Position numbers and translations under genes: made by a program. From the NCBI GenBank assembly GCA_963804995.1, contig CAWDSK010000006.1:1280001-1344000 (forward strand): a stretch of DNA of 64,000 nucleotides, given 5' to 3'. Positions within the stretch are counted from its first letter, which is position 1; the number at the start of each line of letters is the position of its first letter. The notes beneath the pieces were generated by a model. The model searched no databases and was not told the origin of the DNA. It worked only from the letters and a program-made list of their open reading frames with translations. Positions 58,265-63,139 of this stretch are shown piece by piece. The DNA is from an uncultured Acidobacteriota bacterium. GTDB taxonomy: Bacteria > Acidobacteriota > Terriglobia > UBA7540.

Positions 58265-59521
58265 ATGAAATCCCGAGAGCGCGTGGGGCGAGCCGTCAAT
58301 TTCCAGGAAGCCGATCGCGTGCCGATTGACTTGGGGGGGCTCAAGGCCTCCGGTATTTCGGTCGAAACCTATGACCGACTGACGCGCCAACTTGGCCTCC
58401 AGGTCACGCCGCGCGTGGCCGATTCGCCGGGCATGATTGCGGTAGTGGAAGAGGCGGTGCGGAAGCGCTTCAGCGTTGACGTGGCGTCGGTGGATTTATC
58501 CATGGTGTCCAGCCTCATGACCCCTCGCGACCAATGGGTACCTCGCCGATTATTCTCCGGCACCGATGTGCTATTTTCCCCCCACACACGCATCCAGGAA
58601 GAGCCGGACGGAAGCTGGGTGCTGCTGGATGCCAACGGCGCGCCCACCTCCTTCCGCATGCCCAAGGACGGCTACTACTTCGACGATGTCTCGATCAATC
58701 GCGGCAAGGGGATTGACCCCGCCAAGTTCCACCCCGTGGATGACATCGCAGACGAAGTCCTAAAACAGATGGAGGAATACTCCGCCCAGCTTTATAACGG
58801 CACGGACTACGCGCTGCTGGGATGGGGTGGCGGCGTCTGCTTCCTGGGGCTCAGCGTGATCACGGACCCGCGCTCAAACGTCACCATGGGCATGCCGGAC
58901 CAGTGGATGATGATGCTCCTGACGGAGAAGGAGACCTGCCACGAAATGATGAACCGGTCGGTGGAAGCGAGCATCAAGTGCATGACGCTTCTGCATCAGG
59001 CGGTGGGCGACCGCTGCTTTGCCTGGGGCATTGCCTCGGATGACAGCGGCACTCAGCGCGGCGAGTTCATCAACCCCAAGCTTTGGGCGGAAATGATGAA
59101 ACCCCACTACCAGAAACTCTGCGACTGGGTCCACCGCAACACACGCTGGAAGACGTTCCTGCATTGTTGCGGTTCGATCTACAACCTTATCCCGCATTTC
59201 ATTGCGGCCGGCATCGATATTCTGAATCCCGTGCAGACTTCAGCAGCCAACATGGACCCCGCCCGGTTGAAGAAAGAGTTCGGCCGCAAGATCGTATTCT
59301 GGGGCGGCGGCTGCGATACCCAGAGCGTCCTGGGCGGGGCGACGCCCGCTGAGGTCCGCGAGCATGTCCGGGAGCGCCTCGGAATCTTTGCCCCCGGCGG
59401 TGGCTACGTGTTCAACCAGGTGCACAACATCCAGCGCAACGTGCCCACTGAAAACGTCATCGCCATGCTCAACGCCGCACTGGAGTTTGGGGGGTACGAA
59501 GAGAGAGGGAATAGGGAATAG
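58265..59521 (+). CDS. Uroporphyrinogen decarboxylase/MtaA-family methyltransferase-like protein
   Basis: DRVPIDLG, DDSGTQ, LHCCG, NPVQ, WGGGCDTQ, HNIQ. Confidence 0.9.
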   Translation: MKSRERVGRAVNFQEADRVPIDLGGLKASGISVETYDRLTRQLGLQVTPRVADSPGMIAVVEEAVRKRFSVDVASVDLSMVSSLMTPRDQWVPRRLFSGTDVLFSPHTRIQEEPDGSWVLLDANGAPTSFRMPKDGYYFDDVSINRGKGIDPAKFHPVDDIADEVLKQMEEYSAQLYNGTDYALLGWGGGVCFLGLSVITDPRSNVTMGMPDQWMMMLLTEKETCHEMMNRSVEASIKCMTLLHQAVGDRCFAWGIASDDSGTQRGEFINPKLWAEMMKPHYQKLCDWVHRNTRWKTFLHCCGSIYNLIPHFIAAGIDILNPVQTSAANMDPARLKKEFGRKIVFWGGGCDTQSVLGGATPAEVREHVRERLGIFAPGGGYVFNQVHNIQRNVPTENVIAMLNAALEFGGYEERGNRE

Positions 59522-59979
59522 CTGGTAGCCATCTCTGAAACCGCGATGCCGTGTCAAGCGGATTTTAGGTGCCGATTGACAGAAGTCTGCACCTAGTTTC
59601 AGAATGGCAGTCAGCCGGCGAAGCGGAAGCGGGCTCTGCTGGCGAGCAACCCGCCGAGGAATAGCCGGTGGGAGGCTCATCGTAACGACGAGCAGGGGGG
59701 CGATGGGATGATCGCTCCTCCTCCTGGTGGTTACGATAGCTTCCCCATGCCTGAGAAAACGCCCGGCCGATTACGATCCTCGCCGAGTTCGCCACTCCGA
59801 AACTTGCACGGCTAAGTTAAAACACCTCCCTGGGGTAGGGCCAGGTTCTCACCCTGGCCTGCCGGTGGTGCGGTGGCCCAAGAGAAATCCCCAGGCCACG
59901 CACCCCCGACCGCGGCCGAGGAGAAGAATTCTCGCTCGGCCCTTTCTGAAACTCGGAGCCCAGGACGTGGGCGCTTGTC

Positions 59980-60125
59980 GCTTGCCACGATGTCGCCGGC
60001 GGATGCGCCGATTCCAGTCATCTCTACAGGATCACTGCGGGGGTCTCCCGCAGGCCTCAGTCTGTTGTTCGAGGGGCAGTTCCTCATCACGGTTCGGGTT
60101 TGGTTTCCCCATGGCTACCTCAGGC
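59980..60125 (-). ncRNA. Putative bridge/seek RNA of the IS
   Basis: Contains GGTAGCCA and ACCGTG (target arms) and AGAGATGA and GACATC (donor arms); boundaries approximate. Confidence 0.8.
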
Positions 60126-61166
60126 TTACTGCCCCAGCTTGCCGGCTCTCCGGCCCCAACGTTCGGCCTGGAAAGGTGCTCCGTGTTTCAAAACTCCGTA
60201 AACGCAGCGGGCGACCGAACCCGCCACCGCCGTCTTGGCCACATTGGGGTGCTTGTGGCAGCGCCGCAGGTGCCAGTAACGCTGGCCGAGCGGGCTCTTG
60301 CTGCGCGTCAGGGCGTTGGCGGCGGTGATCAAGGCCCAGCGCAACCAGACCGGACCTTGGCGGGTGATCGGACCATGAATCGAAACCTCGCCACTATCGT
60401 AGGAACTGGGCACCAAGCCGGTATAGTTCAACAGCGCGTCGGCGGAGTCGAAACGCGCCAGGTCTCCGATCTCGCTCCAGATGACCGCCGCCAGCATGTG
60501 CCCGAGGCCGGGGATGGTCTGCAGGAGCGCCACCTGGGGGAAAGCCGCGGCGGCCGCCAGCAGTTCCGCCTCGCTGGTTTCGCGCTCGGCGCTGAGAAAA
60601 TCGTACAGGCGAAACATCCGCTCGAAACACAACTGCGCCGCCGACGAGAGCGCTTGCTGCTGGATCCAGGCTCGCCCCTTGGCGGTGAAGACGCACCGCT
60701 GCGGTCGCAGCCCGTGCATCTCCAGCAGGCTATTGACGCGGTTCTTCGTCTGGGCCCGCAGCCGCGCCAGGCCGCACCGCTGCCGCGCCAGCAGGCGTAA
60801 TTCCCGGATGGAAGGGGGCGGAAACCAAGCCTCCGGTAGCGGCTCCACGTCGTGCACCGCCAGTTTCTTCACCAAGCGCCGAGTGTCCAGCCGGTCCGAC
60901 TTCTGCTTGCGCAAGCTGTCGATCCCCGCCGTGTGCACCCAGTGCGCCCGATCCCGCCACCCCGCCTCTTCCAGCACACTCATCACAAAATAACCGCTGG
61001 TGGAAACTTCCAGAGCGATCTCCGCATCCGGCGGCAGCTCCGCCAAGCGCTGCCGCCACGCTTCCCGCGTGCACTCGATCGGCTCCAGCATTTTTACGTC
61101 TTCCCCGGGCGGAATCATCGCCATCCAACAACGTCCCTTGTGAACGTCCGACGCAACCGGTATCAT
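60126..61166 (-). CDS. IS110-family transposase (bridge recombinase)
   Basis: DVHK, ALEVST, KSDRLD (DEDD); TIPGLG; GLVPSSYDSG catalytic Ser region. Confidence 0.95.
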   Translation of the reverse strand: MIPVASDVHKGRCWMAMIPPGEDVKMLEPIECTREAWRQRLAELPPDAEIALEVSTSGYFVMSVLEEAGWRDRAHWVHTAGIDSLRKQKSDRLDTRRLVKKLAVHDVEPLPEAWFPPPSIRELRLLARQRCGLARLRAQTKNRVNSLLEMHGLRPQRCVFTAKGRAWIQQQALSSAAQLCFERMFRLYDFLSAERETSEAELLAAAAAFPQVALLQTIPGLGHMLAAVIWSEIGDLARFDSADALLNYTGLVPSSYDSGEVSIHGPITRQGPVWLRWALITAANALTRSKSPLGQRYWHLRRCHKHPNVAKTAVAGSVARCVYGVLKHGAPFQAERWGRRAGKLGQ

Positions 61167-61623
61167 CGTCTTGCCTCCTCGTTGAATTTCTTTCCCAGGT
61201 CCAGTCTACCTGGACCCGAGGAGGCATCGCCGTTTCATAACATCACGGTCAGCGTTCTTTTGACCGTGGGCTTTTCCCGCGTTGCCATACCCCCAGCGCG
61301 TAGCCCAGAGGTTTTCGGCTCCGAGACGAATTTCTCTGCGGCACTTTCTCATGGCCTGGCAATGAACCGGTCGGGTTCGGGATTTAAAGTGCCGCAGAGG
61401 AAAGCCAACTGCGCTTACCTCTGCGCTACCCCGCTTTGGAGGTCAAATCATTTACCATATCCTGCACATCCTGTGAGCACTTGCTGTTTATATCCTGGGC
61501 ATGGTTCTGTGTCAGTTCAGTAACGCTCAGGTGTTTGGTTACAGTTGCTCAAGCAGATTACATACCCAATCCTCTTCCCAATTAACAACAAGCGTGGCGC
61601 CATTGCCGCGAAAAGGAGGTCCT

Positions 61624-61743
61624 GTGTTCGTTGAACTCATGCCGCTTCTCGCTGGCCGCACTGTGCTCATCACGGTGGCCAGGGTGGATGACAAGACGCT
61701 TCGTGTCAATGTTATGTTTCGAGCAATGGACCAGGCTCCTTGA
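61624..61743 (+). pseudogene. Fragment resembling the N-terminus of PRTRC system protein E
   Basis: AGGAGG RBS, then (M)FVELMPLLAGRTVLITVARVDDKTLRVNV and an abrupt stop. Confidence 0.55.
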
Positions 61744-61957
61744 TGCCGGGGAGGACCTACGAGCTTTCCTGGAAGCAAACAAGAGCCGCCTGAAGCTCAA
61801 GGCATGAGACTTGAAGCTGTCGATCTTGCTTGTTAAGAGTTTTTCTGGCTGAAATGGCATAGGGCGAGCCACACCTCTGAAGAAGAGGTCCTCACCGCTG
61901 GCTCGCCTGCTGGTTCGCGTAGTCGACTGGCTCTCCCGGGTGTGCTGGATAAAATCA

Positions 61958-62662
61958 TTAGAACAGGTTGAGTGTAAGGCGGAAGCCGGGATGCCTCACG
62001 TTGAACAAATAATAGACGCCATCAATGTATTCGACATAAAAGTCGTCGTTGTAATCCCAGCCCATTGGCCACCCTTCAGTGTACCCGAACGAGTAGCCGC
62101 CGTATTGGAAGCGGTTATACCCGCCGATCATCCGGGGACGCCCCATGTGGAACGAGTGGTCATGACCGAAATGGGCACGGTAATTGGTGTCAGAAATGCG
62201 GCCATAATGGCCGGCGTTGCCGCCACGGTTGTTAGCAACGGCCTGTGGCTGCTGCCCTCTGGACTGCTGAGCGCGTTGTGGCTGTGCTTTCTCGGCACGT
62301 TGTGGCTGCGCTTTCTCGGCACGTTGTGGCTGTGCTTTCTCGGCACGTTGTGGCTGTGCTTTCTCGGCACGTTGTGGCTGTGCTTTCTCGGCACGTTGTG
62401 GCTGTGCTTTCTCGGCACGTTGTGGCTGTGCTTTCTCGGCACGCTGTGGCTGTGCTTTCTCGGCACGCTGTGGCTGTGCTTTCTCGGCACGCTGTGGCTG
62501 CGCTTTCTGTGCGTGCTGAGGTTGTTGCTCGTGTTGCGGCGCCGCCTGAGGTTTTCCTCCGCCTCCGCCCTTTTCCTCCTCGCCTTTTTGTGCGAATGCA
62601 GGAAGGGTGGTTCCGAGAAGTAAAAGCAGAACTGCTGTACTGATAACTCGCTTGTGGTTCAT
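61958..62662 (-). CDS. Exported protein with QPQRAEKA tandem repeats and an aromatic-rich C-terminal domain
   Basis: Signal peptide ending AFA; nine exact octapeptide repeats; HFGHDHSF, YVEYIDGVYYL. Confidence 0.85.
   Translation of the reverse strand: MNHKRVISTAVLLLLLGTTLPAFAQKGEEEKGGGGGKPQAAPQHEQQPQHAQKAQPQRAEKAQPQRAEKAQPQRAEKAQPQRAEKAQPQRAEKAQPQRAEKAQPQRAEKAQPQRAEKAQPQRAEKAQPQRAQQSRGQQPQAVANNRGGNAGHYGRISDTNYRAHFGHDHSFHMGRPRMIGGYNRFQYGGYSFGYTEGWPMGWDYNDDFYVEYIDGVYYLFNVRHPGFRLTLNLF
62275..62525. repeat. 24-bp coding tandem repeat (VNTR)
   Basis: tgtggctgtgctttctcggcacgt, about 10 copies. Confidence 0.95.
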
Positions 62663-63139
62663 AGGTGTTGCCTCCAACTCAATTCACATCTGGCTTTCAT
62701 CCTAATACTCAAGTTACACCTCTTATACCGTTTGCGCGCATGGGTGTCAGTTCAATACGGCTCGCCCATTAGGTCAAAAATGCTCATCCCAGTTCATGGG
62801 GGCTACAGTTTGGAGCCGGTGGGGAACGGTATTGAGCTTGATGCCTATCGCGCTGAGCAAGCCAAGCAGCGGATTCCCACAATGCCGCAACTGAGCAAAT
62901 CTATACACGAGACTGTTCCTAAGTGGGCAGCCAACTGTCTTCGGCTTCTGTCATGCTGCGTAGCGGGGAAGTGAGTCCGGAGGAGGGAACTCTTGCGCTG
63001 GGCACATTCTCCTCCCGGCGGCACCTGCAACCCAGCAGAAAGCGCAGTTATAGGCGGTGGTTTAATGTAAGGCTGAAAAGCGTGATAGGCGTTTATCGGG
63101 ACAGGTTATTTGTGAAAAAGAGGTACGGAGGTAACGACC

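Follow-up and report, generated by a model that had tools for sequence, protein, structure and literature searches.

The described systems closest to the element treated here are IS1111-group insertion sequences with a seekRNA encoded at the 3' side of the gene, namely ISEc11, ISPa11 (which targets repetitive extragenic palindromic, REP, sequences), ISKpn4, ISPst6 and the retargeted pair ISEc11/ISXne4 (Siddiquee et al. 2024, PMC11187229), the bridge RNA element IS621 (Durrant et al. 2024, PMC11208160; structures 8wt6-8wt9) and the IS110-family element ISPpu9 of Pseudomonas putida (Pares-Guillen et al. 2025, PMC12288879). IS1111 seekRNAs are described to start at the transposase stop codon and to carry the match to the top strand of the target 5' of the match to the bottom strand (PMC11187229); the features that define the IS1111 group are given in PMC11187229 and PMC11208160. 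The present element lies on the minus strand of a stretch of 64,000 nucleotides, called the window below, from an uncultured Acidobacteriota bacterium (Terriglobia; UBA7540; assembly GCA_963804995.1, contig CAWDSK010000006.1, positions 1,280,001 to 1,344,000). It is very probably an intact member of the IS1111 group (IS110 family), directed by a guide RNA that the element itself encodes (a seekRNA or bridge RNA), and it is well supported as a new example of the RNA-guided IS110/IS1111 kind reported in 2024, not as a new mechanism. Unlike ISEc11, its host is a soil or peat acidobacterium of the uncultured type.

The element proper occupies positions 59532-61243 (1712 bp), with its left end at 61243 and its right end at 59532. 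The original prediction had placed it at 59524-61249, which is the right place, with 8 and 6 flanking bases too many. All words quoted for the junctions were found in the sequence where they had been described, namely GGTAGC (59524-59529), CA (59530-59531) and TCTCTGAAAC (59532-59541) at the left junction of the window, and GTTTCATAACAT (61232-61243), CA (61244-61245) and CGGT (61246-61249) at the right; the same holds for the minus-strand words GGTAGCCA (60119-60112), ACCGTG (60093-60088), AGAGATGA (60025-60018), GACATC (59994-59989) and TTGACA (59557-59552). The core dinucleotide TG stands at both ends in all four genomic copies and in nearly all relatives, and empty sites carry a single TG. 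The core of IS621 is CT. The subterminal inverted repeat, TGAAAC.GCGATGCC, falls within the 7-17 bp typical of the IS1111 group; 14 of its 15 positions agree with the reverse complement of the right end at an offset of 2, and it starts, core excluded, 6 nt inside the left end and 4 nt inside the right. The non-coding parts of the element measure 77 nt upstream and 594 nt downstream of the transposase gene. The tail of ISEc11 is about 200-270 nt long, and the greater length of the present one is due to an extra conserved cassette, described below.

The encoded transposase of 346 aa matches the Pfam domains DEDD_Tnp_IS110 (PF01548, 34.7 bits, cut-off 29) and Transposase_20 (PF02371, 79.2 bits, cut-off 21.3), as well as the NCBIfam model NF033542 ("IS110 family RNA-guided transposase") with 177.7 bits against a cut-off of 140. 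Residues D7, E53, D91, D94 and S258-G259 are invariant in a protein alignment with two siblings (58% and 62% identity). D91, D94 and the SG motif also align with chain 8wt6_A of IS621, at positions that are presumably the catalytic ones of that enzyme. The solved relatives IS621 and ISCro4 match the transposase in the C-terminal domain alone (for IS621, E 9.4e-13). GLVPSSYDSG at residues 250-259 represents the GL-P----S(t)G motif of IS1111-group transposases, and the length of 346 aa lies in their range of about 330-350 aa. The open reading frame and the conserved catalytic residues suggest that the recombinase is intact, as had been predicted. Judged by its sequence, the element belongs to the IS1111 group of the IS110 family, every defining feature that can be looked for at this level being present. 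The DEDD enzyme of about 340 aa with GL-P----SG, the long downstream non-coding region and the subterminal inverted repeats are shared with the ISEc11 group (PMC11187229).

Four full-length copies were found in the genome (7.55 Mb, 9 contigs), three of which are identical and one of which carries a single substitution. All four are inserted at the same spot and in the same orientation, with ..ACCG-TG at the left and TG-GCTACC.. at the right (element orientation), and the same palindromic hairpin flanks three of them, the stem being different in the flank of L004. Alignment of the flanks had been named as a check on the prediction, and it revealed no insertion in unrelated sequence. The proposed reconstituted target is real: GACCGTGGCTACC, with a single TG, recurs throughout the genome far above its reversed control, with 164 occurrences at no more than one mismatch (67 of them exact) against 6. 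Since this sequence is abundant and contains one TG, the target is a REP-like repeat and TG is the core shared by target and element. The target is specific, the orientation is fixed and there is no duplication beyond the shared core, as seen in the four copies and in the empty sites with one TG. The insertion of ISEc11-group elements into a repeat hairpin is likewise described to proceed without duplication (PMC11187229).

The region directly behind the transposase gene contains a target-binding domain in which a basal helix (P1) and an inner helix of 3 bp (P2) lead to an internal loop with the two target guides on opposite sides, closed by a distal hairpin (P3; Table 1). The layout was obtained with RNAalifold on 59 relatives. 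Across P1-P3 and the base of a further hairpin, P4, 96.3% of cells are paired and both-sided changes occur in 10 of 17 pairs; none of 500 shuffles reached as high a count, and slid controls were 31-58% paired. Both target arms had been placed just past the transposase stop, and this position is correct. Guide 1 (GGTAGCCA) lies 5' and is complementary to TG-GCTACC, the core and right flank on the top strand of the element; the U that closes it could pair with the terminal A of the right end and is at least 90% conserved in the 59 relatives. Guide 2 (ACCGTG in DNA letters) lies 3' and is identical to the left flank ACCG, the core TG and the first two bases of the left end, and would therefore pair with the bottom strand. 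The agreement with the first two left-end bases follows from the sequence UGAU at this guide, which is invariant in all 59 relatives. The top-strand match precedes the bottom-strand match and the two overlap at TG, as in the ISEc11 group, where the RNA also starts at the stop codon and the matches overlap at the insertion point (PMC11187229). The handshake-like extension of the target arms into donor sequence, predicted to be 1-3 nt, amounts to 1 nt for guide 1 and 2 nt for guide 2. A fold that buried the guides in stems had been named as evidence against the prediction; both guides are found unpaired in the internal loop. In 20,000 mononucleotide shuffles of the first 150 nt past the stop codon, GGTAGCCA occurred in 0.33%, ACCGTG in 4.3%, both together in 0.005%, the proposed donor arm AGAGATGA in 0.2% and the second proposed donor arm GACATC in 3.4%. 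GGTAGCCA, ACCGTG and AGAGATGA are thus well beyond chance, and GACATC, which in addition needs a wobble pair, is not.

The same genome harbors a sister element, B, in four copies (L005, L006/L012, L007, L008) with nearly the same ends and 65-67% nucleotide identity over the gene. Two of these are intact (1734 bp, 366 aa) and L005 has a frameshift of 1 nt in the transposase; in the fourth copy an excess of about 1.1 kb between the gene and the right end points to an insertion. The site of B, with GCGCTC-TG at the left and TG-CGCCAGC at the right, is a repeat with 49 copies at no more than one mismatch, against 2 for the control. An alignment of the regions behind the gene in the element described above (A) and in B shows a common scaffold on which both arms have different sequences. 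Guide 1 reads GGTAGCCA in A and GCTGGCGC, the complement of G-CGCCAGC, in B; guide 2 reads ACCGTGAT in A and GCGCTCTGAT, corresponding to left flank, TG and AT, in B. Two abundant repeat families (164 and 49 copies at no more than one mismatch) are the landing sites of the two sister elements. A further element, F (L021), has a backbone of the B type, yet its guides and its left flank are of the A type. In the B-type backbone (L007:2446-2510 and relatives) the transposase frame crosses the whole target loop and stops at a TGA formed by the core TG and the next base of guide 2, a feature that sets it apart from ISEc11 as described in PMC11187229. Because this frame ends inside guide 2, retargeting alters the last residues of the protein.

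Relatives were collected from species genomes and from 80 metagenome loci; 85 loops could be parsed and gave 71 unique combinations of guides and flanks. Nine wrongly anchored metagenome loci were left out of the alignment of 59 rows, and those with a recognisable loop were re-parsed by pattern. Loci without a parsable loop or on short contigs enter no count (e.g. L043, L058, L060, L062, L065, L068, L074, L082, L094 and L115). Guide 1 has at least 7 contiguous nucleotides complementary to its own right flank in 48 of the 51 unique combinations with a right flank, the exceptions being L079, whose right end abuts another right-end-like sequence, L076 (5 nt) and L111 (6 nt). Guide 2 matches its own left flank, TG counted, over at least 6 nt in 40 of 67 combinations and over at least 5 nt in 50 of 67. 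At least seven classes of guide 1 fit their own flanks: GGTAGCCA with TGGCTACC, GGTAGGCA with TGCCTACC, GCTGGCGC with GCGCCAGC, GGTAGCGC with GCGCTACC, CGTAGCGC with GCGCTACG, GCCTGTCA with TGACAGG and ACATGTCA with TGACATG. For guide 2 there are at least ten such classes, with ACCG, ACTG, ATTG, GCCG, GCTC, GGTC, AGTC, TGTC, AGAA or GGAA, each before TG. An example with single-base changes is L097, in which GGTAGGCA stands with TGCCTACC and ATTGTG with ATTGTG. The guides therefore follow their targets across relatives on a kept scaffold, which was the covariation looked for, and both arms change with the insertion site in the siblings. Natural retargeting on one scaffold shows that such elements are programmable in evolution, in line with the reprogrammable recombinase originally predicted. 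Retargeting by changed loop strands on a conserved stem is also described for ISEc11/ISXne4, as a single pair (PMC11187229), whereas at least seven classes form a series here. One subfamily (L076, L077, L092, L113) has the left end ATGTTGTAGAAC, a right end ..GTTCTAGAGA or ..TTTTAGAGA, and targets with ..GAA-TG at the left and TG-ACA.. at the right; its subterminal repeats change together.

Several observations weigh against the RNA-guided reading or limit it. A class-level permutation favours the covariation, the observed score being reached in 3 of 40,320 arrangements for guide 1 and in 0 of 200,000 for guide 2; its limit is that the classes were hand-picked from the table and represented by the commonest flank of each. 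The match of guide 2 is 4 nt or shorter in 17 of 67 combinations. L091 combines guides and a right flank of the B type with a left flank of the A type, perhaps through recombination between two elements; in L114 and L111 neither side gives a good match. Guide 1 offers no partner to T, the first core base, in the classes ending in GCGC and in the variants GGTAGCCC and GGTAGCCT. The single-sequence fold of the guide region returns the same domain at an energy no better than that of shuffles (z -0.93), so that the structure rests on covariation. On the donor side the right-end terminus AGAGA never varies, and covariation cannot probe the right-end guide. Of the public sequencing runs, none contained more than 0.18 of the sampled words of the element, and contigs from two peat DNA runs and two metatranscriptome runs, compared at 88% likeness, yielded relatives only, with no back-joint at the element ends among the matches listed, and are uninformative on the circle.

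These points can be set against two other explanations of the locus. The target-like words might be a captured REP fragment or a coincidence, the hairpin being recognised by the protein; a palindromic repeat with 164 copies does make its words common in the genome. The two words are, however, on either side of a conserved hairpin, and no REP sequence follows on from them. They stand at fixed positions of a scaffold with compensatory changes, and they vary along with the target in no fewer than seven classes, among which are targets with most positions different. Together with the joint shuffle rate of 0.005%, this leaves the explanation with hardly any probability. The element might instead be a recent relic, correct in its anatomy and no longer mobile. 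The contigs of the public runs, which gave relatives only and showed no back-joint, and the frameshifted copy L005 of the sister element B would fit such a state. It is nevertheless quite unlikely, as the four copies show at most one difference, the frame is open with its catalytic residues conserved, the guides are a perfect match to the target, of which many sites are still empty. Contigs from the RNA libraries do cover 59900-60455 and the 3' cassette, and transcription cannot be deduced from them because contigs show neither starts, ends nor strand and DNA may be present in the library. An intact, RNA-guided element that is probably still active remains the reading adopted here.

The donor side of the RNA consists of two segments separated by hairpin P4. 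Its outer pairs are A-U in 33 and G-C in 23 sequences, and G-C in 52 and C-G in 5, and its distal stem is family-specific. The 3' segment AGAGATGA had been predicted to match the junction of the circle, and this agreement is sustained: the word is kept in relatives, all 59 of which have A-AGAUGA, with conservation of at least 90% at the one other position. The second predicted arm, GACATC, is not supported. If GACAUC (59994-59989) guided the left end, it would pair with GATGTT through one G-T wobble; the word is present, and GCGACAT is kept in close relatives of the A type (L040, L042, L044, L047; 92-95% protein identity), and only in these within the 59-sequence alignment. The left end ATGTTATGAA is, however, common to nearly all relatives, and other families with this end read GCAAACTC, GAAAACTC or other letters at the position of GACAUC. 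The 6-mer turns up in 3.4% of shuffles even before wobble or shifted registers are allowed, and the minimum free energy structure pairs it with GAUG of AGAGAUGA. An RNA of 82 nt is described to be sufficient for ISEc11 (PMC11187229), and 82 nt counted from P1 here end far upstream of GACAUC. A left-end guide at this place, and with it the four-guide layout of the original prediction, is accordingly very unlikely.

A better candidate, itself weakly supported by the alignment, is the putative guide GAACAAC(A), which might read the left end by pairing with (T)GTT.T and form a donor-binding multi-loop with AGAGAUGA. The segment is conserved and unpaired and mirrors AGAGAUGA across P4. Its bases A72, A74, A75 and C76 (numbering of the first alignment row) are invariant or nearly so and could be the partners of left-end T7, T5, T4 and G3; in the left-end class of L076/L077, ACAACA is the perfect complement of TGTTGT, and CCAACA matches 5 nt in L113. 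Durrant et al. (PMC11208160) remark on apparent donor binding by a multi-loop in numerous IS1111 orthologues, and the layout would fit this. On the other hand, the middle base is mostly C in the main class, a mismatch to A6 of the left end; fewer elements have U, and some have A or G. In L092, which belongs to the variant left-end class, the base is G. The pairing comprises 4-5 invariant bases without clean covariation and is not contiguous with the core, and the ends might be recognised instead by the protein through the subterminal repeats. This assignment is a possible one, to be held tentatively, with the balance somewhat against it.

Table 1. Positions in the window of the element's features and its target
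Feature	Position	Strand	Remarks
Transposase/recombinase gene, 346 aa	60126-61166	minus	Pfam and NCBIfam matches
Core dinucleotide TG (CA on plus)	61244-61245; second copy 59530-59531	minus	abuts both ends
Left subterminal inverted repeat TGAAACGGCGATGCC	61223-61237 (element positions 7-21)	minus	partner 59536-59550
Target REP hairpin CACGGTCAG..TGACCGTG	61244-61268	plus	right of insertion; other arm GGTAGC 59524-59529
5' untranslated region stem-loop, GCCUCCUCG paired with CGAGGAGGC	61173-61225	minus	buries ribosome-binding site of transposase
Target-binding domain of guide RNA	60073-60135	minus	RNAalifold on 59 relatives and single-sequence fold
Helix P1	60135-60128 with 60080-60073	minus	overlaps stop codon
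Helix P2 (3 bp)	60124-60122 with 60084-60082	minus	
Guide 1, GGTAGCCA(U)	60111-60119	minus	unpaired, 5' side of internal loop
Distal hairpin P3	60109-60107 with 60098-60096	minus	
Guide 2, ACCGUG(AU)	60086-60093	minus	unpaired, 3' side of same internal loop
Candidate left-end donor guide GAACAAC(A)	60063-60070	minus	conserved, single-stranded, 5' of P4
Hairpin P4	60028-60057	minus	separates the two donor-side segments
Predicted right-end donor guide AGAGAUGA	60018-60025	minus	equals last 5 nt of right end, TG and first nt of left end (predicted circle junction)
Terminator-like hairpin with T-run	59820-59845	minus	between guide region and cassette; pattern scan, hairpin at 59845-59829
Conserved structured cassette, 157 nt	59608-59764	minus	element tail
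Outward TTGACA, -35 box of putative junction promoter	59552-59557	minus	

By analogy with ISEc11 and IS621, activity of the element, from circle formation and promoter function to RNA expression, RNA processing and strand exchange, may be pictured as follows. The DEDD/Ser recombinase would cut the element out and close it into a circle at the TG core. The circle junction would set the outward TTGACA 18 nt from GATGAT, and the resulting promoter would drive the transposase mRNA and the RNA just behind it. That RNA would fold into the helix scaffold with its internal loop and two guides, of which the 5' strand of the loop (GGUAGCCA) may pair with the top strand of TG-GCTACC and the 3' strand (ACCGUG) with the bottom strand of ACCG-TG; both guides together would define one position in the REP-like hairpin repeat. 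With AGAGAUGA, a second, multi-loop region would match the right end and the core together with base 1 of the left end, and the recombinase would exchange strands at TG, giving insertion without duplication. The bridge RNA of IS621 (PMC11208160) likewise reads the two strands of its target by the sides of an internal loop, both over a core of 2 nt, has extra bases that match the product junctions in a handshake-like manner, and has a separate donor-reading part. It differs in lying upstream of the gene, in the reversed order of its strand matches, in reading the donor by a second simple internal loop and not by segments in a multi-loop around a hairpin, and in not having the long subterminal repeats seen here.

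The outward TTGACA had been proposed to form a junction promoter, and it is conserved in place in relatives: of 53 unique right ends, 52 have TTGAC[AG] with its last base 19-20 nt from the end of the element. In the predicted circle it would be followed, after a spacer of 18 nt, by the -10 box GATGAT (4 of 6 consensus positions), to which right end, core and left end all contribute; as long as the element is integrated, GATGGC (2 of 6) stands there instead. TTGACA and GATGAT plausibly form a junction promoter of the known type, and one with its -35 box in the right end is also described for the ISEc11 group (PMC11187229). The 5' untranslated region of the gene folds into a stem-loop; the fold of 61160-61243 has an energy of -32.8 kcal/mol (z -4.52), none of 200 shuffles was as good, and the words GCCUCCUCG and CGAGGAGGC are present in relatives. 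Scans with Rfam 15 of 59000-62000 returned only chance-level microRNA and viral matches, none near the gathering score, and Rfam may lack a model for IS1111 guide RNAs.

The first part of the extra cassette in the tail is a long helix that encloses a variable hairpin; the second is a hairpin whose symmetric internal loop is nearly invariant. In 40 sequences 95.2% of cells are paired and 7 of 19 pairs are compensatory, the covariation score being reached by none of 500 shuffles; the fold has a z of -2.83. The cassette is conserved between A and B, and blastn detected it in 23 of 41 related genomes, with 18 of the 24 members of the genus among them; it is absent from a shorter element of the D type (1480 bp) and from element E. 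It also occurs directly behind the stop codons of IS3-family transposases (with rve and HTH_21 domains). Two genomes of other families have it between metabolic genes, and a transposase was not seen there in the nearest 1.5 kb. An Rfam scan of 59532-59800 (and of 59000-62000) gave no match to the cassette and only chance-level microRNA and viral matches. In contigs from the peat DNA and RNA libraries the core of the cassette is by far the most covered bin, which mostly reflects its conservation among many elements. The cues as to its strand conflict, since wobbles in some rows fit the sense strand and A-C mismatches in others correspond to antisense wobbles. A promoter-like site on the plus strand (59576-59605; TTGACA, 18 nt, CAGAAT; 10 of 12 matches) is antisense to the transposase and directed into the cassette; 20 of the 53 unique right ends have a comparable one, which accompanies the cassette in hosts of the IS110 type only. 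Terminator-like sites in the tail region are no more frequent than in shuffles, and the hairpin at 59820-59845 is only a lead. A joint between 59669 and 61184, in one contig of each of the runs X1 and X2, combines about 60 nt of the left end with the last ~140 nt (shorter side 28 nt) and suggests, as a lead only, transposase-less miniature derivatives in the peat metagenomes.

A role of the cassette as a second guide loop was considered and rejected, as its loop strands are the same in hosts of the IS110 and the IS3 type despite their different ends. A tentative interpretation, given a little less than even weight, is that the cassette is an undescribed structured RNA, a passenger of unrelated insertion-sequence families in Terriglobia, whose nearly invariant loop strands would bind a factor of the host or the element, e.g. 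in the control of transposase translation or transcript fate. ISPpu9 with its ssr9 module may serve as a loose precedent for a small-RNA passenger, likened by description and not by sequence. It too is an IS110-family element inserted in REP sequences with an extra small-RNA module downstream, and ssr9 is described to be dispensable and to occur also apart from the element (PMC12288879). ISPpu9 differs in belonging to the IS110 group with its bridge RNA upstream, and ssr9 in its modular movement with duplicated end boxes, no such boxes being found at the present cassette, and in that the cassette is common to IS3-family elements.

As to its surroundings, the element is inserted 3 nt past the stop codon of a URO-D-like gene. 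An open reading frame of 239 aa nearby (window positions 61958-62677, minus strand) has a signal-like start and about 10 tandem units of 8 residues (AQPQRAEK).

If the cassette is a passenger RNA, the long tail of the element would hold two functional RNAs, one of them the guide, and the occurrence of this cassette with IS3 elements is the only part of the findings that might lead somewhere new. For the IS1111 group, the locus and its relatives provide a natural series of retargeted guide RNAs on one scaffold, which covers at least seven classes of target and includes, within one genome, a pair of sister elements aimed at two repeat families. The series shows which loop positions are fixed and which are free, the UGAU after guide 2 being invariant and the U after guide 1 nearly so, and pairing to the first base of the core is optional across it. 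The known mechanism is unchanged; the added value lies in the retargeting series and in the correction of the donor arm, and the series is useful for the engineering of IS1111-type recombinases.

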